A stretch of DNA of 64,000 nucleotides from Candidatus Anderseniibacteriota bacterium (GCA_021414205.1 JAIOOW010000003.1:48-64047); one strand, 5' to 3'; positions 34,134 through 49,217 are shown, counted from the stretch's first letter. Program-made: numbers and translations. Notes: generated by a model from the sequence alone, not told the origin.

Positions 34134-35843
34134 TCAATTAAACCAGATTTTCTCCTTTCGCGATATGCCAGATATAAGCTGCCAACCTGCGCAAAGTATT
34201 CCGAAAGCCATGAAAACCACTTGTTTCTGTTTATTTGGATTTGGAATATTACTATTACCATATACGGTCCGAACAACATTATGGGATACCAACCCCGGCC
34301 AATCAGGAGGAGGTGTCGGCTGACTCACCATAGTCACAGCACCGGCAACCCTTGGCTGTGACGCTGGGACCTTTTTACCCCTTACTTGCTTCGGTGTCGG
34401 CAATACTTCTTCATGAACACATATTATGTTCTCTTTCCCAGGTGTCACAATATCGGTCCATTGATACAAACCATCATCAGTCCTACTTAGCGACTGGCCG
34501 GCATATGTTTTTTCGTATGCAAGAATCGCAACGACTTTTCCTTGAGGGTCAATAAGCCTTGCACTGTCATCGCTATTATTTAATGCAATTTTTGTACTAT
34601 TTTTATCAAGAACAATAATCTTTGTTGGACCAATTTTATCACCGAACTTAAAGCGGTATGGCTTACTTCCACCATCCTCGTCATCAACAGTCCAACCAAC
34701 TAAAGACACTACTCGATTATCAAGGTTTTTTATCTCTATAAACTCATTATTTTTATCATCTTTTATAGTATTTGGGTAAAGCTCGTTAATAACGATTTTT
34801 GATGAGAAATCATATGTAGTAGAGGTGGTAGTCGGCTTCGGCGTTGCCAGTGGTTTTGGGGTTGAGGTGGTAGTCGGATTTGGAACCTCGATAATGTTTT
34901 CCTCGCCAGGAGTAGGACGCTCGCTTTGTTGAAAATCGCCATCGTCCACATGATTATACGAATACCCCTCCTTACTACTAACGTATGTAATATCCTCTCG
35001 CACAATATCATCCGAACTGATCAATCTCACATGTTCACTATCATTGTTCAAAGATAATTTTGTCTGACTGCTATAAAAAACTATGTACCCTTTTGTGGGA
35101 ATGCTTGTATCGTCAGGTATTATAAACGGCGGACTTCCCCCATCGGCAATATCATCTAATTTCCATCCCGATATATCTACAGCGTCAGCAGAATCATTAT
35201 ATAACTCGATAAACTCCAGCGTCGCGTCATCGCCTGCGGGATTTGGAATAAATTCGTTGATATGAGCATGCTCCGAATATTCCACAACTGGCGATGAACT
35301 TGGGCTCGTACTAGGAGATGGAATTGTCGTCGGGGTAGGGCTGGGCGTAGGCGTAGGGTCCAGTATGTTTAAAGCGTTTGGAGTTGGAGTAGAACTCTTA
35401 CTATACGTACCGTCATCAAGCCTATTATATGAATAGCCTGAGGTGCTTCCATTATATGAAGCCGTTTCATGTATCGTCGCGCCTGGATCTATAAGAGAGA
35501 TACTTCTCTCTCCCGTGTTTGCCAACATACTTCCTGTTTGCGAGCTATAAAATGCCATGTATCCATCAGCATCAATATGCACACCACTTGATATAATAAG
35601 CACCTTCCCAGACGCGTTTTTTAAAACCCAACCAGACAGATCAATAGAATTATTGGAATTGTTATGCAATTCGATAAACTCCAACGTATCATCATCTCCC
35701 ACTGGATCTGGAAGAAATTCATTTATATGAACTTCATTTGAATACGTGGGAATTTGAGCCCGTGCGCTCAAAAAAGCCCCCGCAAAGCATGCTACGGAAA
35801 AGAGGGTAATGAGTCTACCTCGCCATGTGAGCTCTCCCAGCAT
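34134..35843 (-). CDS. Secreted protein with three lamin-tail-domain (LTD) repeats.
   Basis: Signal peptide, then three modules each starting I/VNEF(L/I)PxPxGDDxTLEFIEL(H/Y)N and separated by Pro/Thr/Ser-rich linkers. Confidence 0.6.
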   Translation of the reverse strand: MLGELTWRGRLITLFSVACFAGAFLSARAQIPTYSNEVHINEFLPDPVGDDDTLEFIELHNNSNNSIDLSGWVLKNASGKVLIISSGVHIDADGYMAFYSSQTGSMLANTGERSISLIDPGATIHETASYNGSTSGYSYNRLDDGTYSKSSTPTPNALNILDPTPTPSPTPTTIPSPSTSPSSSPVVEYSEHAHINEFIPNPAGDDATLEFIELYNDSADAVDISGWKLDDIADGGSPPFIIPDDTSIPTKGYIVFYSSQTKLSLNNDSEHVRLISSDDIVREDITYVSSKEGYSYNHVDDGDFQQSERPTPGEENIIEVPNPTTTSTPKPLATPKPTTTSTTYDFSSKIVINELYPNTIKDDKNNEFIEIKNLDNRVVSLVGWTVDDEDGGSKPYRFKFGDKIGPTKIIVLDKNSTKIALNNSDDSARLIDPQGKVVAILAYEKTYAGQSLSRTDDGLYQWTDIVTPGKENIICVHEEVLPTPKQVRGKKVPASQPRVAGAVTMVSQPTPPPDWPGLVSHNVVRTVYGNSNIPNPNKQKQVVFMAFGILCAGWQLISGISRKEKIWFN

Positions 35844-37025: not shown

Positions 37026-37595
37026 ATGAAATCAGATATTGTCTCGTATCTTATCATCGCCCTATGCGCGGGATGCGTATTTTTTGCGCAGCAACACATT
37101 CAAATTCCTGCAAATCCGCTCATCGCTGTTCCAGATAGCTTGCAACACATCAACTTTCATACACCAGTCATCACAACCGGCCTTGTCCTACCAGCGCATA
37201 TAGCCACCAACATGGTAGTCGGACCAGATCAAGGGACGATTATTATAAATAGCCTGGTTAGCATAGAAAAAAACGCATCCCTCACAATACAACCAGGAAC
37301 CACGCTTGCGGTGAGTGAATTCGGAGGCTTAAACGTATTCGGATCCCTATACGCCGTAGGCACCACAAATAAACCAATATCGTTTATCACCAACGAATTA
37401 AACGAGACAAACCGACATTGGGTGGGCATACTACTTCAAGACTTCAGCACATCACACATAAGTAACGTATCAATCCACCATGCATCTCCCGCAATAAGTT
37501 GCTCCGGTCAAGCGAAAACAAGCATTCAGCACATCACTTTTCTACTTGACGCCGTCGGGAATGCACGCAACACTGCTAACTGCACTATACAATAA
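37026..37595 (+). CDS. Hypothetical secreted protein (beta-helix-like).
   Basis: Signal peptide (IIALCAGCVFFAQQ) followed by Ser/Thr/Asn/Ile-rich repetitive beta-strand-like segments. Confidence 0.4.
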   Translation: MKSDIVSYLIIALCAGCVFFAQQHIQIPANPLIAVPDSLQHINFHTPVITTGLVLPAHIATNMVVGPDQGTIIINSLVSIEKNASLTIQPGTTLAVSEFGGLNVFGSLYAVGTTNKPISFITNELNETNRHWVGILLQDFSTSHISNVSIHHASPAISCSGQAKTSIQHITFLLDAVGNARNTANCTIQ

Positions 37596-37599
37596 TACT

Positions 37600-38112
37600 A
37601 TGTCCGGACATTCTAAATGGAGCCAAATAAAACGAGCGAAGGAAGTTACCGATAAAAAGAGGAGCCAGTTATTCGGCAAGCTTTCTCATGACATTTTGAT
37701 TGCTTCTGTATCCGGGACGGACCCAAAGGCAAACGCTGCCCTGCAAGACGCGATCGCGAAAGCGAGAAAAGGAAATATGCCCCAGAGCAATATTGATCGC
37801 CTTTTAGAACGCCAAGCAAAAAAGGGTACGCAGACAGTAACGTACGAGGGTTTTGGGCCAGGAGGAATTGCTATTCTTATTATTACCCTTACTGATAACC
37901 CAAATAGAACCGTCGCAGAAATCAGAGCAATTATGAAATCGCACGGAATGCAGCTTGGCGTTCCGGGAAGCGTTCAGTGGAAATTCGATGAGCAAAAAAA
38001 CCCAAAGTATCCCGTCCAACTAGAAGGCGAATTGAAAGATGCTGCAGACGCACTTGTTGATGAATTAGAATCACACAACGACACTGTGCAAATCGTTACA
38101 GATATTTTATAA
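37600..38112 (+). CDS. yebC: YebC/PmpR-family transcriptional regulatory protein, shortened form.
   Basis: MSGHSKWSQIKRAK is the family N-terminus. A central YEGFGPGGIAILI..TDNPNRT region and a C-terminal ...LESHNDTVQIVTDI are present. At 170 aa it is about 70 aa shorter than the usual approximately 240 aa. Confidence 0.7.
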   Translation: MSGHSKWSQIKRAKEVTDKKRSQLFGKLSHDILIASVSGTDPKANAALQDAIAKARKGNMPQSNIDRLLERQAKKGTQTVTYEGFGPGGIAILIITLTDNPNRTVAEIRAIMKSHGMQLGVPGSVQWKFDEQKNPKYPVQLEGELKDAADALVDELESHNDTVQIVTDIL

Positions 38113-38119
38113 TATACAT

Positions 38120-38587
38120 ATGATTATCCTCGGACTGGACCCGGGCATTGCTCGGACCGGTTATGGAATTATAAACACCGATGCTCCTTTTCAATTCGTT
38201 ACATGCGGATGTATTACGACGCTCCCCATATACCCACTCGAGCAACGACTAGATATTATTGCGCAAGATGTAACGAATCTTATAGATACGTACAATCCAG
38301 ACATTGGAGTTGTCGAGGAAATATTCTTTGGAAGAAACACAACTACGGCGATGAAAACCGCTCATGTGCGCGGAGTACTCCTCCAAATTCTGCATGCACG
38401 CCATATAACAGTTCAGGAACTCACGCCGCTTCAGATCAAATCTCGACTTACAGGGTATGGGGCTGCAACAAAAACACAAATACAAAACATGATAAAACAA
38501 CAACTACGCTTAACTTCTATCCCTCAACCAGATGATGCTGCAGACGCATTGGCGGCAGCATTATGCGCTGAAAAAATAACACTATGA
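38120..38587 (+). CDS. ruvC: Crossover junction endodeoxyribonuclease RuvC.
   Basis: MIILGLDPGIARTGYGII with the catalytic Asp, EE...FFGRN, and a C-terminal DDAADALAAAL are all classic RuvC. Confidence 0.9.
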   Translation: MIILGLDPGIARTGYGIINTDAPFQFVTCGCITTLPIYPLEQRLDIIAQDVTNLIDTYNPDIGVVEEIFFGRNTTTAMKTAHVRGVLLQILHARHITVQELTPLQIKSRLTGYGAATKTQIQNMIKQQLRLTSIPQPDDAADALAAALCAEKITL

Positions 38588-40122
38588 AACCATTTTTCCA
38601 ACAGACAATTTTAACATCTCTATGCGCAGGAGTAATCTTTGGAACTGCACTACTGGCGCATGCCCAAGACACGCCTCAGAACAAACTATCCGTACATATC
38701 ACCCAAGGAAGCAATCAGTCATTCGTTGGAAAATTAAACAACTTCTCTCTTGCAGATCAGCAAAATCTGGACCCAGCTCACATAAACACTGTCTGGACAT
38801 TTGGAGATGGCACAAAGTCAGAAGGATCTTCCGTGAGCCACGCATATAAACTATCCGGCACATATGCAGTAAAAGTTACACAGACAGACGATAGCGGACA
38901 AATTGCCGAAGATACTACGCAGATTACCGTTTTCACTCACGTAGCAATCCTACTCATCGATAATTCATTCCCAAGCGATCAAATAGAAGTGAAGCAACAA
39001 GAAGCTGCCCGCGAACAAGTTCTTCTTGTCGTTATTCAGCCAAAAACAAACGGACCAGAAACAGTAACAGAAGAAGCGCTTACTAATCAATTACTGGATG
39101 CGCGCGACGCCGTATTAAAAGCGAACTATATCCTCGTTGAAACTTCTGGAAGCGTTGGATCGAGCGCATTATCGAAGCTTGCACAGCACATCAAACAGTC
39201 CTCGGACTTATCGTTTGAAGACTTGGGAATCAAAGATAAGGGTATCTTCATACTATCAAACACCCCCTTTGGAGTCTTGGCGCCCGCAGCACAGTCCGCG
39301 TTCGATCAACTACGACCAAATTACGTCCTGCTTACAAAACCAGAGGCAATGGATTTGATTCTCGAACCGATGACGGCTGAGGAAGCTAAGCAAACTATTA
39401 TCACCTCCCCAATCGACCATCGACTGCTTGGTCCATTTAGTGCACGCACCGTAAAAGACATAGGAATTACTAATTTCATATCATTCGGAATCAATTACTT
39501 AGTAAATAAAGGTGTGCCTATAAATAGCATCACCCTTATCTTAATGCTGCCCGTCATCGCCACTATTCTATCTTTCTCGCGACAAGTAATCGGAATGAAG
39601 GCGTTTGGACTCGTGACCCCAACCATGACAACACTCAGCTTTCTCGTGATGGGTCTTCCATATGGCCTCATTATCTTTTCCGCGGTACTGCTTTCAGGAA
39701 CGCTCACTCGTCTCATCCTCAAACGCCTACATCTCCTCTACTTGCCTCGCATGGCCCTCGTCTTAACAAGCGCCAGTATTGCGATATTGCTCGTATTCGG
39801 ACTTGGCGCGTCTACTGACAATTCGATCCTAGCCTCATTCTCCATATTCCCCATCCTAATGCTCACCTTACTTGCAGAAGAATTTATCGCACTACAATTT
39901 AAGTCTGGAGCAAAAAGCGCATTCACCGTCACTACCTGGACGCTCGTATTATCTATCGGATGTTACTTTATTGTCAGCTGGCAACTGCTTCGAACAATTA
40001 TTGTGTCCTATCCGGAAATTGTCTTGTTGACGCTTCCTCTTAACATCTTGTTCGGCCGATGGAGCGGACTACGCATCACGGAATACATTCGATTCCGCCA
40101 CCTTCTTCGATACATCCAATAA
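38584..40122 (+). CDS. Secreted PKD-domain protein with a C-terminal 7-TM bundle (7TM_transglut-like receptor module).
   Basis: Signal peptide, a PKD domain (WTFGDGTKSEGSSVSHAYKLSGTYAVKVTQTDDSGQ), an approximately 180-aa globular region and seven predicted TM helices in the last approximately 210 aa. ATGA overlap with ruvC. Confidence 0.55.
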   Translation: MKPFFQQTILTSLCAGVIFGTALLAHAQDTPQNKLSVHITQGSNQSFVGKLNNFSLADQQNLDPAHINTVWTFGDGTKSEGSSVSHAYKLSGTYAVKVTQTDDSGQIAEDTTQITVFTHVAILLIDNSFPSDQIEVKQQEAAREQVLLVVIQPKTNGPETVTEEALTNQLLDARDAVLKANYILVETSGSVGSSALSKLAQHIKQSSDLSFEDLGIKDKGIFILSNTPFGVLAPAAQSAFDQLRPNYVLLTKPEAMDLILEPMTAEEAKQTIITSPIDHRLLGPFSARTVKDIGITNFISFGINYLVNKGVPINSITLILMLPVIATILSFSRQVIGMKAFGLVTPTMTTLSFLVMGLPYGLIIFSAVLLSGTLTRLILKRLHLLYLPRMALVLTSASIAILLVFGLGASTDNSILASFSIFPILMLTLLAEEFIALQFKSGAKSAFTVTTWTLVLSIGCYFIVSWQLLRTIIVSYPEIVLLTLPLNILFGRWSGLRITEYIRFRHLLRYIQ

Positions 40123-40127
40123 GCGCT

Positions 40128-41441
40128 ATGGCGGCATTTCTAAACAAAAAATGGGGAGATATTTTGGGCATGAATTCTCGCATGTTGGATTATATTATCA
40201 AATCCAATTCACCTGAATCGATCCGTATTGCAAACAATAAATTAGCTACAAAAAAAGCTCTTCAAAAAGCAGGGTTAGCAACTCCTCGCCTGTTCGCAGT
40301 AGTCCGCAATCGAACTGAATTACGAAAATTCAGATGGACAAAACTCCCCGCTTCTTTTGTGCTAAAACCAACATCCTCCTCTGGTGGAGGTGGAATTATC
40401 GTAATGTTCGGCAGAAACAAAAAAGGTAACTGGGTAAAAGCGAATAAGACGGAAGTTTTTATTCCTGAGCTCAAGGCTCATATTCAAGATATTTTGGATG
40501 GAAACTTCTCAAAAGGAAATGTCCCAGATACCGCCTTTTTTGAACAACGAGTAAAGATTCATGCAACATTAAAGCCCTATTGCGTAAAAGGAATTCCGGA
40601 TGTCCGAGTCATTATCTACAACCAAGTCCCCGTGATGGCCATGCTCCGGTTACCCACCGAAGAATCTCACGGCCGGGCAAACCTCCATACTGGCGGAATT
40701 GGTGCGGGGATAGACATATCGACCGGACTCACAACGTCAGCTATTCGACACCACAAGCCAATAGACAAAACGCCACATAATCACTTGCGAATTTCCGGCA
40801 TCCAAATTCCGTTCTGGGACGACATTCTCTTGCTTGCTTCACGAGCGGCTCAGGCATGCGGACTTAATTATGTTGGGGTTGATATCGCAATCGACAGAGA
40901 CGACGGTCCGCTCGTTCTTGAAGTAAACGCGCGGCCGGGATTAGACATACAATTCGCTAACCTTTCTCCGCTCAAGTCTCGCCTGCGCAGAGTGGAGGGG
41001 TTAAAAATGAAAAGCATCGAAAAAAAAATACAACTGGCAAAAAACTTATTTGGCGCTGAGTTAGACCAGGAAATTGAAGATATTTACGGCCATACCGTGC
41101 TTGGAATTGAAGAAGAGGTCATTATCTTTGATCATGAAGGGCGACAATACCCCGTGCTTGCAAAAATAGATACTGGCGCATACAGAACTACTATAGATGA
41201 AAACCTGGCTATTCGTCTGGGCATCAATTCCCCTGTCATTATCCACAAAGGCGTCCGAGGAGCGCTCGGAAGGCAAACTCGGCCCGTAATCTCCCTGGAA
41301 ATGTCTCTCAGAAATAGGAATATTAAAACACATGCCTCTCTTATTGACCGTTCTCATATGAAATACGATATGATTATAGGAAGGCGTGACATGAAGGGGT
41401 TTTACGTAAATCCTTCTAAAATACGCCAAACAGTCTTATAG
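40128..41441 (+). CDS. RimK-like ATP-grasp alpha-L-glutamate-ligase-like enzyme fused to a C-terminal retropepsin-like (DTGA) peptidase domain.
   Basis: The ATP-grasp core contains FVLKPTSSSGGGGIIVM, VIIYNQ...MLR and NLHTGGIGAGIDISTG (RimK family). The C-terminal approximately 100 aa carries VLAKIDTGAYRTTID, matching the PF05618 retropepsin-like 'Zn-protease' motif (AKxDTGA). The ATG at 40128 lies 5 nt after the upstream stop. Confidence 0.65.
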   Translation: MAAFLNKKWGDILGMNSRMLDYIIKSNSPESIRIANNKLATKKALQKAGLATPRLFAVVRNRTELRKFRWTKLPASFVLKPTSSSGGGGIIVMFGRNKKGNWVKANKTEVFIPELKAHIQDILDGNFSKGNVPDTAFFEQRVKIHATLKPYCVKGIPDVRVIIYNQVPVMAMLRLPTEESHGRANLHTGGIGAGIDISTGLTTSAIRHHKPIDKTPHNHLRISGIQIPFWDDILLLASRAAQACGLNYVGVDIAIDRDDGPLVLEVNARPGLDIQFANLSPLKSRLRRVEGLKMKSIEKKIQLAKNLFGAELDQEIEDIYGHTVLGIEEEVIIFDHEGRQYPVLAKIDTGAYRTTIDENLAIRLGINSPVIIHKGVRGALGRQTRPVISLEMSLRNRNIKTHASLIDRSHMKYDMIIGRRDMKGFYVNPSKIRQTVL

Positions 41442-41444
41442 CCT

Positions 41445-44270
41445 ATGCCTACACGCAAATACAACAGACATCACCATATCGCGACATCGCTCTCGCGTAG
41501 ATTTTTTACAAAAAAAATCTTTTTTCGAGCGCTCTCTGGCATAGGAATTCTGCTCATAGTATTTGCCGGCGTAGTGCTCTGGTGGAGTCGAGACTTACCA
41601 GATCCGAGCAAGCTGCAGCCCGGCCATGTAGCCGAATCTACGAAAATATACGACTCAACCGGCACACAGCTATTGTATGAGGTTGGCGATATTAAACACA
41701 CAGAAGTGCCCCTTGATCAAATATCCAAATTCGCTGTTGATGCCCTGCTAGCAGCCGAAGACGACCAATTCTATAACGAACATGGCATATCTATCACGGG
41801 CATACTGCGCGGCGTTATCTTAAAACCCCTAAGCGGACAGCGAGCTGAGGGGGGTTCTACTATTACTCAGCAACTGGTAAAAAATTCCTTACTCACATCC
41901 GACAGAACCATTCAAAGAAAAGTAAAAGAATTGGTGTTGTCCTTGGAATTAGAGCAGCGATTCTCAAAAGACCAAATACTTTCAATGTATTTAAATAGTA
42001 TTCCATACGGAAGTCGTGCATACGGGATAGAGTCTGCCTCACAAACGTTTTTTGGAAAATCGTCAAAAGATCTCGATATATCTCAAGCAGCCATCCTTGC
42101 AGCGCTCGTTCAAGCACCAAGCCACTATTCTCCATACGGATCATACCTCGATGATTTAAAAACTCGCCAACAATACATTATTGGACGAATGGCGACGCTT
42201 AACATGATAACGAAAGACCAGGCAGAACAAGCAAAAGCAGAACCTCTCGCTTTCCAGCCTCAAACTGACAACATCATTGCGCCACACTTCGTTTTCTATA
42301 TTCAAGACCTCCTCGACCAAGAATACGGCGCGCAAGTAGTTGATCAAGGTGGCTTAAAAATCATCACCACACTTGATATGCGTTTACAGAAAATAGCAGA
42401 GGATACGCTCAAGAAATATCAAGCGAAACTCACTGCGAATGGTGCAAAAAATGCCTCAATCGTCGCAATTGATCCGAAAAATGGAAATATTCTGGCAATG
42501 GTCGGCTCAATTGATTATTTCAATAAGGATATCGATGGAAACGTGAACGTATCTATCCGAAATCGCTCCCCAGGATCATCGTTCAAGCCTTTTATATACG
42601 CACAAGCGTTTGCGGAAGGATATAGACCGGAAACCCTATTAGTTGACGCCAACACTGACTTCGGCCAAGGATACACTCCTCAAAACTACGACCTCAAAGA
42701 ACACGGGATCGTATCAATGAGAACGGCACTCGACAACTCTCTTAATATTCCCGCCGTAAAAACACTTTACTTAGCAGGTGTTAAGAATGTCGTAGCGCTT
42801 GCCCAAAAAATGGGTATTCCAACTCTGACAAACCCTGATCAATACGGGCTATCTCTTGCGCTTGGAGGTGGCGACGTAACCCTTCTCGACATGACGTCGG
42901 CATATGGCGTATTTGCAAACGAAGGGGTCCAATTTCCTCCGCGAGCTATCTTGAAAATCGATCACGGAAGTCAGAACGTATTCGACTCAAGTAAAAATCA
43001 GCCTCAAGGCAATGCAGCACTTGATCCTCAAATAGCGCGGATTGTTACAAACGTACTATCGGACAATAATGCCCGCGGCATGGTATTCGGGCTTAACAGC
43101 TATTTGCAGCTTGGAGCACGCCCGGTTGCTGCTAAAACAGGAACCTCTCAAGACTTTAGAGACGGTTGGACATACGGGTATACCCCTTCCCTAGTTGCTG
43201 GTGTATGGACGGGCAATAATGATAACTCCCCAATGAGAAATAACTCAGACGGGGTCGTAACTGCCGGTCCTATTTGGAACACATTTATGAAACAAGCCCT
43301 CAGCAATACTCCAATAGAACAGTTCACCGCTCCAGAACCTCTCTCGCCGGCAAGCAATAGCATGGTCAACGGACAATTACCGCAAGTCAAAGGAAAATGG
43401 GTTGCGGACACCCAAACACTCTATACCCCAGACTGTCCGATTGACGCGGGAGAAATGAGGACGTTTGAAGAAGTGCACAGTATTCTATTTTATACGAGAA
43501 GAGGTGACCCGAATGGCCCACCTCCTGCCCAAGCAGAGTCAGACCCTCAATTCGCCAGCTGGGAAAATGGCGTATCGGCATGGATAGCTAAGCAGAATCA
43601 AGCAAACCAAGCAGACCCAACGCAGCCAATATACACATCCTCGCTTCCGACCCCTTCGTGCAACATAGGAAGCTCCGATGAATTGCCTCAAGTGCGCATC
43701 ACTTCGCCTGCAGAAACAATTCTTCGAAGCAGTCCCGTAACAGTTACTGCCACCGTCGACTCTAGCCACCCACTCAAGACTGTTCGCTTCTTGCTCGATG
43801 GACAAGAAATAGCCTCATTGCAACCAGGCGACTCTTATAAGGCATCCTTCTCATTCCCTTCATCATTCGCAGGAAGAAAAACACTCGTTATTCAAGCTAT
43901 AACACAGGATAACCTCATTGGAACGGCACACAGGACCTTTATTATCAATCCAGATCCATCAGCTCCAATCGTTACCCTAAACGTCCCTCAAAATGGCTCA
44001 ACCGTGGCATCTCTGCCATACACCATCAAAGTAACTGCAACGGCCCACGCAGGCATAGACTTTGTAGATATTCTATACACAAAAGATGGTGGAAACGGCA
44101 CGCAACGAATTGCGCGAGTAACTGCTCCATCTGCAAGCGGTCCTAATAGATGGGACACCACCTGGCAAGACTCAAGCGGTCCGGGAACATACCACATATA
44201 CGCTGTTGCATACGACAAGACAGGCAACACGACGCAATCAAGCGTAAATACCGTAAACGTTCAGCAATAA
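41445..44270 (+). CDS. Class A penicillin-binding protein (PBP1A-type) with C-terminal Ig-like extensions.
   Basis: N-terminal TM segment, GT51 transglycosylase motifs (EDDQFYNEHGIS, GGSTITQQLVKN), transpeptidase motifs SxxK (SSFKPF), SxN and KTGT, then an approximately 250-aa C-terminal beta-rich extension. Confidence 0.9.
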   Translation: MPTRKYNRHHHIATSLSRRFFTKKIFFRALSGIGILLIVFAGVVLWWSRDLPDPSKLQPGHVAESTKIYDSTGTQLLYEVGDIKHTEVPLDQISKFAVDALLAAEDDQFYNEHGISITGILRGVILKPLSGQRAEGGSTITQQLVKNSLLTSDRTIQRKVKELVLSLELEQRFSKDQILSMYLNSIPYGSRAYGIESASQTFFGKSSKDLDISQAAILAALVQAPSHYSPYGSYLDDLKTRQQYIIGRMATLNMITKDQAEQAKAEPLAFQPQTDNIIAPHFVFYIQDLLDQEYGAQVVDQGGLKIITTLDMRLQKIAEDTLKKYQAKLTANGAKNASIVAIDPKNGNILAMVGSIDYFNKDIDGNVNVSIRNRSPGSSFKPFIYAQAFAEGYRPETLLVDANTDFGQGYTPQNYDLKEHGIVSMRTALDNSLNIPAVKTLYLAGVKNVVALAQKMGIPTLTNPDQYGLSLALGGGDVTLLDMTSAYGVFANEGVQFPPRAILKIDHGSQNVFDSSKNQPQGNAALDPQIARIVTNVLSDNNARGMVFGLNSYLQLGARPVAAKTGTSQDFRDGWTYGYTPSLVAGVWTGNNDNSPMRNNSDGVVTAGPIWNTFMKQALSNTPIEQFTAPEPLSPASNSMVNGQLPQVKGKWVADTQTLYTPDCPIDAGEMRTFEEVHSILFYTRRGDPNGPPPAQAESDPQFASWENGVSAWIAKQNQANQADPTQPIYTSSLPTPSCNIGSSDELPQVRITSPAETILRSSPVTVTATVDSSHPLKTVRFLLDGQEIASLQPGDSYKASFSFPSSFAGRKTLVIQAITQDNLIGTAHRTFIINPDPSAPIVTLNVPQNGSTVASLPYTIKVTATAHAGIDFVDILYTKDGGNGTQRIARVTAPSASGPNRWDTTWQDSSGPGTYHIYAVAYDKTGNTTQSSVNTVNVQQ

Positions 44271-45274: not shown

Positions 45275-46339
45275 CTACGAGGAAGCAAGCGTCCTGATAT
45301 CAATAATAGCAACATCGCTCTTCGCCCGAATTGCTTCTGGAATCGATGTACACGTCAAAATTGTTTGCGATCCAGGAAGGTGACTCAGCAAACTCTCCTG
45401 CCTTACAGGGTCAAGCTCGCTCAATATTTCATCGAAAAGCAAAATTGGATTCCGACCTATTCGTTGCTCTATAAAGGCGCGAGAAGCAACCTTAATAGCA
45501 ATAACAAGTCCTCGAACTTGACCCCGAGAAAGTACCGCATCCGCCGGCCTACCATCTACAGCAACAGCTAGATCATCTCGATGAGGGCCATAAAGCGTAT
45601 GCTTATATTTTTTCTCATACTCCCAAGATTCGTACAAAATATCTCCCAAGGACTCAGTAGATGGTGCGCCTAATGTAAGGGAAACCCGAATATCCCGATC
45701 TTCAAAAAAAAGTTCTTTATACAGTGCGGAAACACGATTATTTAAAAAATCCACAAACTCAAGCCGCTCAAACCAAATCGGCTGTGCATATTCAACCAAC
45801 AAGCTCGTCCAAGCCTGAATATCTTCAAACGTTTTCGCATGCTTAATCGCCATATTCCGCTGACGCAATACTCTATGATATTGAACAATACTAGATAAAT
45901 ACTTCTGAGAACCCGCAAGCGCAGAATTTAAGAAATTTCTCCTTCCGACCGGCCCCCTATTGAACAAAAACGCATCCTCTGGGAGAAAAGCTACGTAAGG
46001 ATACTTCCCGAAAAACGTAACAGGAGAAACGAGGGATCCATTTTCCTGAATACGCATTTTTTTCTGCGCCACAGTGTACTCAACCGACAGCTTTACTAAC
46101 CCCTCCTCCGTATCAACCTGCCCCTGAACCACAAAACTATCCCTTCCCCAAGAAACGCACTCCTCTGCCCGCGAACGAAACGATCTCGCACGAAGCATCA
46201 TAACAATTGCTTCTAAAAAATTGGTTTTTCCGCTTGCGTTTGGGGCCAAAACTGCAATAAGGGGCGCTTCTGGAAAAACAAGCTGATCAATATGATCAAA
46301 ATTCCGAAACTGGTGCGCCGAAAAAGAATAAATTCTCAT
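45275..46339 (-). CDS. recF: DNA replication and repair protein RecF.
   Basis: Walker A PNASGKTNFLEAI at the N-terminus, an SMC-like signature and a C-terminal LLFDEILSELD. Confidence 0.9.
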   Translation of the reverse strand: MRIYSFSAHQFRNFDHIDQLVFPEAPLIAVLAPNASGKTNFLEAIVMMLRARSFRSRAEECVSWGRDSFVVQGQVDTEEGLVKLSVEYTVAQKKMRIQENGSLVSPVTFFGKYPYVAFLPEDAFLFNRGPVGRRNFLNSALAGSQKYLSSIVQYHRVLRQRNMAIKHAKTFEDIQAWTSLLVEYAQPIWFERLEFVDFLNNRVSALYKELFFEDRDIRVSLTLGAPSTESLGDILYESWEYEKKYKHTLYGPHRDDLAVAVDGRPADAVLSRGQVRGLVIAIKVASRAFIEQRIGRNPILLFDEILSELDPVRQESLLSHLPGSQTILTCTSIPEAIRAKSDVAIIDIRTLASS

Positions 46340-46342
46340 ACA

Positions 46343-47443
46343 CTACGCCTGAATAGGCATCACAACATACGTATACACACTCCCCTTATCCTGCTGCCGA
46401 AATACGAGGGGGTCATATTGCCCGGAGAAAAACAACACACATTCACTACTCGTTATATGGGAGATGCCATCAATAATATACTGAATATTAACAAGAACAG
46501 ACATGTCCTCACCCTCGCCAGAAATCGGTAATCTAACTTCACCCTCGCCAAGCTCACCACCAGCAACTTTAGTAACAAGCTCCTGTTCACCAAACTTAAT
46601 AACAACAGACACCCGCCGCGACTCCTTTGGCAGGAAAACAGATACCGTTTTTAATGCTCGAGATAACTCACTCCTCCCCACACGAACCTCGCTCGTGTGC
46701 GTAGTTGGAATAATATCCTCATACCGAGGATACTCCCCATCAACAATTCGAGAAGTTAACTCAACACCATCAGCACTAAATGAAATATAATTATCATGAA
46801 TCGCCACCCGAACTTGCGACTGCCCCGTAAATAACCGAGTAACCTCCTGCGCAGAAGAAAGCGGTAAAATCGCAGAAACATCCCCTTGAAAATCACTCTC
46901 AACTACATATTCAGCCAAGCGAAAAGAGTCCGTTGCGGCAATCCGTAACTTTTTCTCTCTCCACACCAGAAATACGCTGCGAATCTCAGGGCGAGTCTCC
47001 TCACGAGCAGCAGAAAATAGTACGCGACTAAGCCCTCCACATAAATCATCACCAGATAACGTAACAAGCTGATCCCCACCAGCTTCTGGGAGTAGTGGGT
47101 ATTCTTCCGGATCAGATGAAGAAAATTGTGCGCGAAAACCTTTTGTAGAAATGTGCACAAGCTCACCTTTGCGTTCAAGAGTAATTGGGTTTCCAGAAGG
47201 AAGCTGTTGCACATACTCAAAAAAACGCTTCGCAGGAAGCACGCAGCTACCCTCAGCGTCCATTTTCCCACCAATAATGGTCCGTACTCCAACTTCCAGA
47301 TCCGTCGTTGTTAGGATGAGTGTATTTTGCTCTACGCGAAGAAGTATGTGTTGCAAGATTGGTAGTTGAGAATTCTTCCCAGCAATAGGCGCTGTGTTAG
47401 ATACGCCTCGTAATAAGTTTTCCTGCGTGCACGTGAACTTCAT
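46343..47443 (-). CDS. dnaN: DNA polymerase III beta sliding clamp.
   Basis: 366 aa with the three-domain clamp pattern (MKFTCTQENLLRGV...). The dnaA-dnaN-recF synteny supports the call. Confidence 0.9.
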   Translation of the reverse strand: MKFTCTQENLLRGVSNTAPIAGKNSQLPILQHILLRVEQNTLILTTTDLEVGVRTIIGGKMDAEGSCVLPAKRFFEYVQQLPSGNPITLERKGELVHISTKGFRAQFSSSDPEEYPLLPEAGGDQLVTLSGDDLCGGLSRVLFSAAREETRPEIRSVFLVWREKKLRIAATDSFRLAEYVVESDFQGDVSAILPLSSAQEVTRLFTGQSQVRVAIHDNYISFSADGVELTSRIVDGEYPRYEDIIPTTHTSEVRVGRSELSRALKTVSVFLPKESRRVSVVIKFGEQELVTKVAGGELGEGEVRLPISGEGEDMSVLVNIQYIIDGISHITSSECVLFFSGQYDPLVFRQQDKGSVYTYVVMPIQA

Positions 47444-47673
47444 AATTATATATAGTTAGTTATACGTTATTATAGTGAAGAGAAAATCTGTGGATAATCG
47501 AATTTTTATTCTTAGTGTAGAGATTTTTTTTGGGAAAACGTGTGGAAACCGTGATGGATTTCTGTGTATGGATCGGTGTGTATCTACGGGATGCTGTGTG
47601 CATAATCTAATAACTTTTTATTTATAGACAAGTTTTCCGCTCTTTATAGAGTGTTGTGCACACTCTTCCCACA
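47444..47673. promoter_or_regulatory. dnaA-dnaN intergenic region with DnaA boxes and an AT-rich tract (part of oriC).
   Basis: Perfect TGTGGATAA at 47489-47497. Near-consensus boxes TGTGGAAAC (47541-47549) and TGTGCATAA (approximately 47597-47605). An AT-rich run (taacttttttatttatagaca) follows. Confidence 0.5.
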
Positions 47674-49071
47674 TCATGCATAAATCCTTTCTCGCAAGAA
47701 GCTGATCTCTTGTGATAACTCCTCATCATTATCAATAAGTTTTTCTATTTTTTCGCATGCATGCATGGCAGTTGTGTGGTCTCGTCCGCTAAAATGTTCA
47801 CCAATAGATGGAAAGGACATATTGCTTTCTCTTCGAAGGATGTACATTGCAACCTGGCGTGGTCGCACGATTTCTTTTTTTCTGGACTTTCCGCACAATT
47901 CCTCATGGGAAATATTATAGTAAGAGCTTACTGCGGAAATAATTTCCTCCGCGTTTACTGTTTTGCGTTGAGGTTTTTCAATAAGATCTTTAAGTACTCG
48001 CTTAGCATATTCCAGGGTTATTTTTTCGTGATGGAGGTCAAAGTATGCTGCTACCTTATTAAGCGCTCCTTCCAATTCTCGTACGTTGCTTTGAATGTTT
48101 TTTGCTATATAGGAGAGCGCGTCGGAATCGATGTCTATATTTCTGAGGTCTCGTTTTTCTTCTAGGATTGCAAGGCGGGTTTCGTAGTCTGGCCGCTTTA
48201 CGTCAGCTATCATGCCGGCAGATAATCTTGATGATAGGCGCTCTTGGAGTGCTGGGATAGCTGATGGTGGGCGATCGCTGCTTAAAATAATTTGCTTGTT
48301 TTGATTATGGAGTGTGTTAAATGTATAGAAGAGCTCCTCTTGAGTTTTGTCTTTGCCCGCAAAAAACTGAACGTCGTCAATAATAAACATATCCACGTCT
48401 CGGTAGCGCTTTTTAAATTGCTGTATAGTCCCCTCTCGGAGAGATTCGACGAATTCATTCGCAAATTTTTCAGATGCTACATACATAACAGTGAATCCGG
48501 GATTTGCTGCGATAACTGCATTTCCTACTGCTTGTAGGAGGTGTGTTTTTCCCAAACCAACTCCGCCGTAAATAAAAAGAGGGTTATATGTTTCACCTGG
48601 ATGCTCGGCAACCGCTCTGCACGCTGCGTGCGCAATTTCGTTACTTGTACCAACTACGAATGTGTCGAATGTGTACTTTTTATTGAGAGGTATTGAGGAT
48701 GGTGATGGTTGCTTGGTTGGGTATTTTGCGATGTGATCGGATGATGACGGAGTATTTTCGTTTTTTGCGGTATTTTTTTGAGCCACAATGCGAATATTTT
48801 TCTTGGAAATGCGCCGATCGGTATTCTTGGATGCAATAGAGAATTTGATGTCAGATATAGAGTTGTCTATCCCCTGGATTACTTCAAGGATGAGTGGTTT
48901 GTATTTTTTAGATAACCATTCGTATGCAAAAGGGTTTTGAGTTTCGATAATCGCCACGTCGTTTGTACGCTCTTTGATATTTGTGTTTCGAAACCATGTA
49001 AGGAAGTTCCCCTTACTCACGCGGAGCTCCAGTTGATCAAGTGCTACCTTCCAAAGTTGAGTGTCTTTCAT
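47674..49071 (-). CDS. dnaA: Chromosomal replication initiator protein DnaA.
   Basis: AAA+ Walker A GGVGLGKTHLLQA, box VII and sensor motifs, and a C-terminal DNA-binding domain (...MYILRRESNMSFPSIGEHFSGRDHTTAMHACEKI). The start is at Met8 (MKDTQLWKVALDQL), which aligns to DnaA N-termini. The ORF is open to 49092. Confidence 0.93.
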   Translation of the reverse strand: MKDTQLWKVALDQLELRVSKGNFLTWFRNTNIKERTNDVAIIETQNPFAYEWLSKKYKPLILEVIQGIDNSISDIKFSIASKNTDRRISKKNIRIVAQKNTAKNENTPSSSDHIAKYPTKQPSPSSIPLNKKYTFDTFVVGTSNEIAHAACRAVAEHPGETYNPLFIYGGVGLGKTHLLQAVGNAVIAANPGFTVMYVASEKFANEFVESLREGTIQQFKKRYRDVDMFIIDDVQFFAGKDKTQEELFYTFNTLHNQNKQIILSSDRPPSAIPALQERLSSRLSAGMIADVKRPDYETRLAILEEKRDLRNIDIDSDALSYIAKNIQSNVRELEGALNKVAAYFDLHHEKITLEYAKRVLKDLIEKPQRKTVNAEEIISAVSSYYNISHEELCGKSRKKEIVRPRQVAMYILRRESNMSFPSIGEHFSGRDHTTAMHACEKIEKLIDNDEELSQEISFLRERIYA

Positions 49072-49217
49072 ATGCAAGCAGAATCGTATCATGGTTATCC
49101 ACAGCTGTGTACAGTCCGTAAGGTTGAAAATGTGGAAAAGGTGTTGATAATGTGTGTAAAAAATAGTTGATGGTCCTGACTATTGACTTTATAGCGCCTA
49201 TAAAGCATCATTGGGAA
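49072..49217. promoter_or_regulatory. dnaA upstream region / origin of replication candidate (DnaA boxes, divergent promoters of dnaA and rpmH).
   Basis: Perfect TTATCCACA at 49095-49103 and TGTGGAAAA (one mismatch) at 49131-49139. The region is AT-rich. Gene orientation and G/T skew switch here. Confidence 0.5.

Follow-up and report, generated by a model that had tools for sequence, protein, structure and literature searches.

Two adjacent genes in Patescibacteria encode a seven-transmembrane protein and an ATP-grasp ligase-retropepsin fusion resembling the Rlo and Rim systems

A three-gene module that combines an ATP-grasp ligase, a retropepsin-like peptidase and a seven-transmembrane (7TM) protein is said to have been first predicted by Iyer et al. 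in 2009. Here, we report on a two-gene relative of this module, found in a stretch of 64,000 nucleotides (nt) of DNA from a Candidatus Anderseniibacteriota bacterium (GCA_021414205.1, JAIOOW010000003.1:48-64047), which is called the window below. Gene 1 encodes a 7TM protein with an extracytoplasmic part, and gene 2 encodes the ligase and the retropepsin in a single polypeptide. A preliminary description of the locus had pointed to its kinship with the three-gene module, and this kinship is real; all four of its domain assignments hold.

The three-gene module corresponds to RloABC of Pseudomonas aeruginosa, named for retropepsin-like osmotic stress tolerance (Lormand et al., mBio 2025; PMC12239564), and the preliminary description was therefore outdated in calling it functionally uncharacterised. 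For RloABC, genetics, structures and the cleavage of poly-Glu have been reported (PMC12239564). RloA proteins are secreted retropepsins that cut runs of at least 8 Glu residues. In a triple rloA mutant, low osmolarity and cell-wall antibiotics are poorly tolerated, biofilm formation is weak and cell shape is altered, and these defects are suppressed by deletion of rloB, which encodes a 7TM protein that bears an inactive transglutaminase domain, or of rloC, which encodes a cytoplasmic ATP-grasp protein (PMC12239564). The authors propose polyglutamylated substrates or free poly-alpha-Glu and speculate on a link to peptidoglycan (PMC12239564). Of RloB matches, 96% were reported to belong to Proteobacteria, and a Shewanella RloB homologue affects membrane-vesicle production. 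In the related Rim system, RimK is a tetramer, and RimB binds RimK, stimulates poly-alpha-Glu synthesis, removes Glu tails and cuts runs of at least 5-6 Glu residues (PMC11957791, PMC10092738). Literature searches for a Patescibacteria form of the Rlo-like module gave no paper describing it.

Domain content of the two genes

Both open reading frames (ORFs) lie where the preliminary description had located them (Table 1), and its reading of gene 2 as a RimK-type ATP-grasp ligase fused to a retropepsin was confirmed by the profile matches and the DTGA motif given below. The gene 2 product is 100% identical to an entry titled "RimK/LysX family protein" from Candidatus Andersenbacteria (P0001), which has the same start, at 40128, and more than 100 full-length homologues were found, mostly labelled Andersenbacteria. 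A wider homologue census, made by HMMER search of 1.84 billion cluster representatives, gave 2779 relatives, 433 of them at E<=1e-30. Residue conservation was read from sets of 53 homologues, 230 relatives or 170 fused proteins for gene 2, and from 79 sequences for the 7TM protein.

In the ligase domain, the Pfam family ATPgrasp_ST matched residues 19-290 (E-value 7e-66), RimK matched as well, and there was a weak match to TTL. The RloC family model TIGR02291 aligned residues 11-309 with model positions 11-314 of 317 (E-value 3e-79). As judged by these scores, the ligase is nearer to the RloC family (266 bits over the full length) than to rimK_fam (TIGR00768; 63.4 bits versus a cutoff of 143.4), and the score with PRK10446 was 27.7 versus a cutoff of 331, both below the level for RimK itself. 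The catalytic and Mg/ATP-binding residues of an ATP-grasp enzyme are intact: at least 218 of the 230 relatives, the window protein included, have K38, K80, E139, R160, R174, N185, D252, E265 and N267. RimK and cyanophycin synthetase, both polymerising ligases, were the best Foldseek matches of the gene 2 model. The protein has no signal peptide, transmembrane (TM) segment or other hydrophobic segment.

The retropepsin domain was matched by Zn_protease (PF05618) at residues 356-431 (E-value 1e-8), by Asp_protease_2 and gag-asp_proteas, and by the NCBIfam model RloA3 (E-value 5e-9). The DTGA motif, at residues 348-351, is invariant in the 53 homologues, which are from Andersenbacteria. By profile, the domain could be aligned with the RloA crystal structures (PDB 9g58 and 9g59), so that K346, R385 and R408 correspond to RloA K46, R114 and R137. 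In RloA, these three residues and R92 coordinate poly-Glu, and mutagenesis has shown R114 and R137 to be essential in vitro and in vivo (PMC12239564). A counterpart of R92 could not be placed in the alignment, and this position is not conserved in RimB either (PMC12239564). D348, R385 and R408 do not vary among Andersenbacteria, where conservation of K346 reaches at least 90%; in the 170 fused proteins, the three basic residues are kept in about 118-119 cases and D348 in 134. Retention of the DTGA motif together with the poly-Glu residues of RloA supports, by sequence comparison, an active peptidase with an acidic, poly-Glu-like substrate. Retropepsins act as dimers, and oligomerisation of the ligase would thus assemble the peptidase active site.

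The linker between the two domains was modelled with a predicted local distance difference test score (pLDDT) below 50, in a fusion model with a predicted template modelling score of 0.55. This acidic region (41058-41117, residues 311-330) reads AELDQEIEDIYG...GIEEEV, and E329 in it is invariant. This stretch may serve the adjoining, putatively poly-acid-specific peptidase as a pseudo-substrate or as a site of autoprocessing.

Gene 1, which has more than 100 full-length homologues (53-98% identity, mostly labelled Andersenbacteria), had been described as encoding a secreted PKD domain followed by seven TM helices, and this description was upheld. Apart from a signal sequence, the product has a PKD domain, recognised by PKD_4 (E-value 6e-13) and PKD at residues 51-116 (PF18911/PF00801, above the gathering score) and modelled as a beta-sandwich. 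Residues 315-507 matched 7TM_transglut (PF14402; E-value 6e-27, 95 bits versus a cutoff of 25), and the AlphaFold2 model contains seven TM helices plus an amphipathic C-terminal helix. The NCBIfam RloB model (NF052267) aligned solely with the C-terminal half (residues 313-507) and scored 61.4 bits versus a cutoff of 900; the N-terminal periplasmic inactive transglutaminase domain of RloB (PF14400) was looked for in gene 1 and is absent. According to the positive-inside pattern, the N-terminus of the protein would be outside and the C-terminus inside.

The preliminary description had the PKD domain replace the transglutaminase domain. This is incomplete, since an alpha/beta ectodomain at residues 119-285, evident in the model, was overlooked, and since most relatives have no ectodomain at all (see below). 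The alpha/beta ectodomain was modelled at pLDDT above 90. Its invariant residues D126, T187, G189, G192 and T227 are located at or just past the C-terminal strand ends, the usual site of a ligand-binding or catalytic pocket in alpha/beta folds. A search for a relative of known function found none for this domain, which is without a family assignment.

In the 7TM part, the residues conserved in the 79 sequences (R333, Q334, R376, Y386-L-P-R389, E432 and Q438) sit mainly at the cytoplasmic helix ends, in cytoplasmic loops and in the C-terminal helix, where each of G491, G495, R497, E500, R503 and F504 recurs in 75 or more of the 79. The extreme C-termini vary in length and sequence; the last residue is Lys in 31 of 78 proteins and Asp or Glu in 5.

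Table 1. Features of the locus and its immediate neighbours (positions counted from the first nucleotide of the window)
Feature	Position	Strand	Basis
Gene 1, RloB-like 7TM protein with PKD and alpha/beta ectodomain, 512 amino acids	38584..40122	+	ORF, Pfam, homologues, AlphaFold2 model
Signal peptide, residues 1-27, ...ALLAHA/QD (slash, inferred cleavage site)	38584..38664	+	Hydropathy peak 9-27, AxA motif, modelled helix 2-24
PKD domain, residues ~39-117, extracytoplasmic	38698..38934	+	Pfam, model
Alpha/beta (flavodoxin/CheY-like) ectodomain, residues 119-285	38938..39438	+	AlphaFold2 model
7TM bundle, residues ~298-490, PF14402/RloB type	39475..40053	+	Pfam, NCBIfam, model helices
Cytoplasmic C-terminal helix W-x-G-L-R-x-x-E-Y-x-R-F-R, then variable basic end	40054..40119	+	Conserved residues
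Gene 2, ATP-grasp ligase fused to retropepsin, 437 amino acids	40128..41441	+	ORF, Pfam, NCBIfam
RloC/RimK-type ATP-grasp amidoligase domain, residues ~11-310	40158..41057	+	TIGR02291, conserved residues, Foldseek
Flexible acidic linker, residues 311-323, ...AELDQEIEDIYG...	41058..41096	+	pLDDT <50
Retropepsin (RloA/RimB-like, PF05618), residues ~325-431; catalytic DTGA 41169-41180	41100..41420	+	Pfam, NCBIfam, PDB alignment
yebC and ruvC, upstream genes with a conserved position, part of one compact array with the pair	37546..38587	+	Pfam
Class A penicillin-binding protein (PBP1A), transglycosylase, transpeptidase and Big_7	41445..44270	+	Pfam; conserved downstream neighbour

Conservation of the pair and its neighbourhood

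A scan of reference genomes (one genome per species) identified at least 595 relatives. Neighbourhoods were drawn from the best 80, and neighbouring genes were called with hidden Markov models made from the window proteins. Andersen-, Moran-, Falkow-, Kuenen-, Portnoy-, Kerfeld- and Woesebacteria and the Parcubacteria group are among the titles of these loci. Sequence upstream of the fusion gene was available for 76 loci, and in 74 of them the 7TM gene was directly upstream, mostly at a distance of -26 to +50 nt; the two genes are thus co-conserved. In 63 of 74 loci, the 7TM protein is bare (~215-230 amino acids), and it carries the PKD and alpha/beta ectodomain in 11.

Domain architectures were counted in the best 150 cluster representatives from the HMMER search. 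Ligase and retropepsin were combined in 51 of them, ligase, retropepsin and a MATCAP-type metallocarboxypeptidase (PF08014) in 37, ligase and MATCAP in 8, 7TM protein and ligase in 5, and ligase, retropepsin and YdjC in 1, while 48 consisted of the ligase alone. The ligase-retropepsin fusion, which had been taken for a peculiarity of this locus, is real but common, as it occurs in 89 of the 150 representatives and in 80 of the best 80 reference-genome loci, every one of which was aligned to the query via the retropepsin domain. The five 7TM-ligase fusions are independent, continuous sequences without masked residues, in each of which the ligase starts ~10-70 residues past the conserved 7TM tail motif. 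One of them was confirmed by Pfam, and one is from the cyanobacterium Oscillatoria. A 689-amino-acid ORF that seemed to join 7TM protein, ligase and retropepsin (locus L034, 8814-10883) was rejected, because a masked run of N had been read through as X.

On contigs with homologues of 65% identity, the gene order is the same as in the window: yebC, ruvC, PKD/7TM gene, ligase/retropepsin gene, PBP1A and, further on, recF, dnaN and dnaA. The gene directly before the 7TM gene is ruvC in 59 of 71 loci. The order thus recurs across the 80 reference genomes, whose titles cover many Patescibacteria lineages, and the pair was not inserted between ruvC and PBP1A, as had been supposed. PBP1A follows within 6 kb in 44 of 51 loci, 41 of which have it on the same strand, and adjoins the fusion gene directly in only 5. 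Where it is not adjacent, the interval of 1-4.5 kb mostly holds 1-3 RimK-like ATP-grasp genes, MATCAP-like genes and YdjC, and a few loci have unidentified or opposite-strand ORFs between the fusion gene and PBP1A. A search for extra ATP-grasp, MATCAP or YdjC genes in the window found none, so the window carries the minimal form of the module. In several loci (L030, L042, L081 and L083) and in protein P0242, a YdjC-like gene or domain, of a sugar deacetylase family, recurs right after the ligase-retropepsin, a hint that the target of the system may be an amino sugar in some of its versions.

In the window, ruvC and gene 1 overlap by 4 nt, gene 1 and gene 2 are separated by 5 nt, and gene 2 and PBP1A by 3 nt. 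This tight spacing and a scan of the array for promoters and terminators, which stayed at chance level, are both compatible with co-transcription. yebC and ruvC are probably unrelated in function to the pair, and PBP1A is a possible member of the system.

Thirteen of the best loci (L027, L030, L033, L035, L043, L044, L046, L052, L059, L064, L065, L071 and L076) come from assemblies that name Gammaproteobacteria, Bdellovibrionales, Micavibrio or Pacearchaeota in their titles. Nine have the typical Patescibacteria order of yebC, ruvC, 7TM gene and ligase gene; L033 and L043 have only the 7TM and ligase genes, L071 has no yebC and L076 no ruvC. Identity to the query is 43-49% in all 13, and their taxonomic labels (some TPA_asm) are probably wrong.

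Downstream of PBP1A, recF (45275-46339), dnaN (46343-47443) and dnaA (47674-49092; phmmer E-value 1e-183 with DnaA of locus L001) follow on the minus strand, together spanning 45275-49092. GC skew switches sign at ~48 kb, which puts the pair ~6 kb from the probable replication origin. Upstream, at 34134-35843 on the minus strand, a 569-amino-acid protein combines lamin-tail-domain (LTD)-like repeats with linkers rich in Pro and Thr and ends in a hydrophobic anchor; homologues of it, which often have LTD and PKD, adjoin ruvB and yebC in most related Patescibacteria loci. A plus-strand ORF at 37026-37595 encodes a 189-amino-acid protein with a hydrophobic N-terminus and no Pfam match. It is found only in Andersenbacteria-like loci (L001-L006, L011 and L012), and the homologues in L001 and L002 have a weak Beta_helix_4 flag. 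As this ORF overlaps the listed TTG start of yebC, the true start of yebC is probably further downstream.

Possible functions of the module

The reading that we prefer, and to which we give an even chance of being correct, is that the locus encodes a membrane-docked synthase of a poly-alpha-glutamate-like peptide, with a built-in trimming peptidase, a 7TM exporter or gate, and a function in the envelope. At the expense of ATP, the cytoplasmic ATP-grasp domain would build a chain of an acidic amino acid, most probably alpha-linked Glu, either as a free oligopeptide or on an acceptor. Oligomerisation of the ligase would activate the fused retropepsin, and the retropepsin would then cut poly-acidic chains, limiting the length of the product and relieving product inhibition, as a covalent equivalent of the RimK-RimB complex. 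The enzyme would dock at the cytoplasmic face of the 7TM protein via the Arg-rich loops and the conserved C-terminal helix. The 7TM protein would in turn carry the product across the membrane, or gate the ligase according to the state of the envelope. The PKD and alpha/beta ectodomain, which Andersenbacteria and a small number of further lineages have gained, probably recognises a ligand at the surface or in the wall, and the physiological output would be the cell envelope. Conservation at the cytoplasmic face, strict gene adjacency and the 7TM-ligase fusions together speak for a complex located at the membrane's inner face, and the accessory ligases and MATCAP-type carboxypeptidases of other lineages fit a logic of peptide building and trimming. 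The envelope phenotypes linked to rlo genes in Pseudomonas and to the Shewanella RloB homologue would suit a role in the envelope, as would the recurrence of PBP1A nearby.

Several observations weigh against this reading. The ligase stays below the curated cutoff of TIGR02291 (266.3 versus 314.2 bits), and the retropepsin below all cutoffs (36 versus 210 bits for RloA3, 25 versus 250 for RloA2, 20 versus 280 for RloA1 and 15 versus 200 for RimB). The catalytic Asp or the basic residues are lost in ~20-30% of the distant fused proteins, and the activities of the members from the candidate phyla radiation (CPR) are predictions from sequence. Even in Pseudomonas, glutamate ligase activity of RloC has not been reported and its amino-acid specificity is not established (PMC12239564). 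The membrane part of gene 1 was modelled with low confidence (pLDDT 46-69), so that a role as channel or transporter is conjectural. Trimming would also take place at another site, since the Pseudomonas peptidase is periplasmic, whereas that of the window belongs to a cytoplasmic enzyme; with a cytoplasmic peptidase, the data do not require an export step. The YdjC accessories and the "sugar-transfer associated" label of the best Pfam match make a sugar-amine acceptor possible, rather than a pure peptide. Outside Andersenbacteria, finally, linkage to PBP1A (39 of 46 loci) is no stronger than to ruvC (50 of 57) or yebC (47 of 57), and inherited gene order therefore suffices to explain the position of PBP1A. 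The recurrence of this position fits the envelope phenotypes seen in Proteobacteria, but is suggestive only, and a link to the wall is a hypothesis.

Such a link is central to an alternative that we find rather doubtful, in which the ligase (elsewhere together with its ATP-grasp paralogues and YdjC) loads amino acids onto a precursor of peptidoglycan, a lipid-linked sugar or another envelope glycan on the 7TM protein, with PBP1A as the polymerase; Ddl and the enterococcal D-Asp ligase may be compared. The proximity of PBP1A, mostly on the same strand, would suit this alternative, as would the YdjC-like domains fused or adjacent to the ligase in several lineages, the Pfam label, and the tandem of up to three more ATP-grasp genes, which would be expected for a stepwise synthesis. 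The invariant Arg cluster on the cytoplasmic side of the 7TM protein is a possible binding site for a phosphate-bearing lipid carrier, and the cell-shape and beta-lactam phenotypes of rlo mutants point the same way, as does the peptidoglycan hypothesis of the RloABC authors. However, ruvC and yebC are kept nearby as consistently as PBP1A, so that an inherited gene order is enough to explain the proximity; the coupling to wall synthesis suggested in the preliminary description is only a possibility. Seven loci with sufficient sequence lack PBP1A within 6 kb, and the window has neither a YdjC gene nor an extra ligase. Moreover, the retropepsin keeps the poly-Glu residues of RloA, and an endopeptidase for long acidic runs would have no obvious role on stem peptides. 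A signalling function, which we find equally doubtful, would let the 7TM protein sense the envelope or osmotic state, through its ectodomain or through membrane tension, and switch the ligase; a cytoplasmic protein would be polyglutamylated, the retropepsin would reset the mark, and nothing would be exported. The location of both enzymatic domains in the cytoplasm is in line with this, and reversible protein polyglutamylation has a precedent in RimK-RimB, with RimK acting on ribosomal protein S6. In 37 of the best 150 representatives, the core is fused to a MATCAP-type carboxypeptidase, a kind of enzyme that in eukaryotes works on the C-termini of proteins, and the variety of ectodomains on a constant 7TM core (none, PKD plus alpha/beta, or transglutaminase-like in Proteobacteria) resembles receptor evolution. 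Yet most relatives have no ectodomain to sense the outside, and in Pseudomonas the peptidase is periplasmic and its loss is suppressed by loss of rloB or rloC, which implies that an RloBC-dependent product reaches the periplasm. A candidate acceptor was sought in the window as an S6 gene, an ORF with an acidic C-terminus or a poly-E run, and none was found; for S6, this is a weak negative, since the query sequence was approximate.

The 7TM tail is not a plausible acceptor either. The preliminary description had proposed that the ligase adds Glu or Asp to this tail and that the peptidase trims it, which is in keeping with the strict adjacency of the genes, with a C-terminus that would be cytoplasmic and with the modification of a protein C-terminus by RimK. 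Past the conserved helix, however, the tails are variable and mostly basic, with Lys or other non-acidic residues at the end, and the natural 7TM-ligase fusions have no free tail C-terminus. We therefore regard tagging of the tail as highly improbable.

The preferred reading of a trimmed acidic peptide can be extended to a widespread, origin-proximal envelope module of the CPR. Such a module would make an acidic non-ribosomal peptide, alpha-polyglutamate-like and lengthened by the extra ligases in some lineages, and the 7TM protein would hand it to the surface, where it would decorate or regulate the peptidoglycan made by PBP1A. This extension is distinctly unlikely. If true, it would mean an unrecognised wall polymer or regulator in bacteria that have no teichoic-acid pathways, and would disclose what Rlo systems do at the molecular level in pathogens.

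In Pseudomonas, the Rlo system has a bearing on tolerance of antibiotics, on biofilms, on the shape of the cells and on osmotic survival. The Patescibacteria versions are natural experiments that constrain the Rlo mechanism. They suggest that the peptidase can act from the cytoplasmic side, in cis with the ligase. The module can do without the transglutaminase-like ectodomain, the ligase can be fused right behind the 7TM tail, arguing for a physical complex, and the core recruits further ligases, carboxypeptidases and a sugar deacetylase. As the module is conserved in many reduced CPR genomes beside the main wall synthase, it may help to build or maintain their envelope, and the two-gene form of the window is a small, tractable construct for biochemistry.

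Comparison with known systems

Poly-gamma-glutamate complexes of the PgsBCA/CapBCA type offer an analogy, as they combine membrane-associated synthesis and export of a Glu polymer with a dedicated peptidase and a role in the envelope or capsule. They differ in their Mur-type ligase, gamma linkage and unrelated membrane components; no homology to them turned up in our searches, none of which was aimed at that comparison. The tubulin C-terminal tail cycle (TTL/TTLL, MATCAP and further carboxypeptidases) is likewise an analogy only. There, too, Glu or Tyr is added by ATP-grasp ligases and taken off again by partner peptidases, and the MATCAP family (PF08014) is fused to the same ligase-retropepsin core in many relatives. 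In contrast, the tubulin cycle is eukaryotic and has a known protein substrate, and the window protein has no MATCAP domain.

The RimK-RimB(-RimA) system for S6 polyglutamylation in Pseudomonas and E. coli is closer. It also joins a ligase to a cytoplasmic retropepsin, in a complex that the fusion of the window mimics covalently, and RimK is the best structural match of the window ligase. Unlike the Rim systems, the module has a 7TM partner, its rimK_fam and RimB scores are below the cutoffs, and no link to S6 was found in the window.

RloABC shares with the locus the TIGR02291-type ATP-grasp, the PF14402 7TM protein and the PF05618 retropepsin, encoded by adjacent genes, as well as the DTG motif and the basic residues of the substrate channel. 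Whereas RloA is a secreted, stand-alone protein with a signal peptide, the window peptidase is part of the ligase, lacks a signal peptide and would be cytoplasmic. Unlike RloB, the window 7TM protein has PKD and alpha/beta domains instead of the inactive transglutaminase, and most CPR relatives are bare. Furthermore, the system consists of two genes rather than three, its hosts are Patescibacteria, and every NCBIfam Rlo model scores under its cutoff on the window proteins. In all, the locus is a real, conserved and probably active system that lies outside the RloA, RloB and RimK families as currently delimited and below the curated cutoff of RloC, yet resembles the Rlo/Rim module in its domains, its catalytic residues and its gene adjacency.

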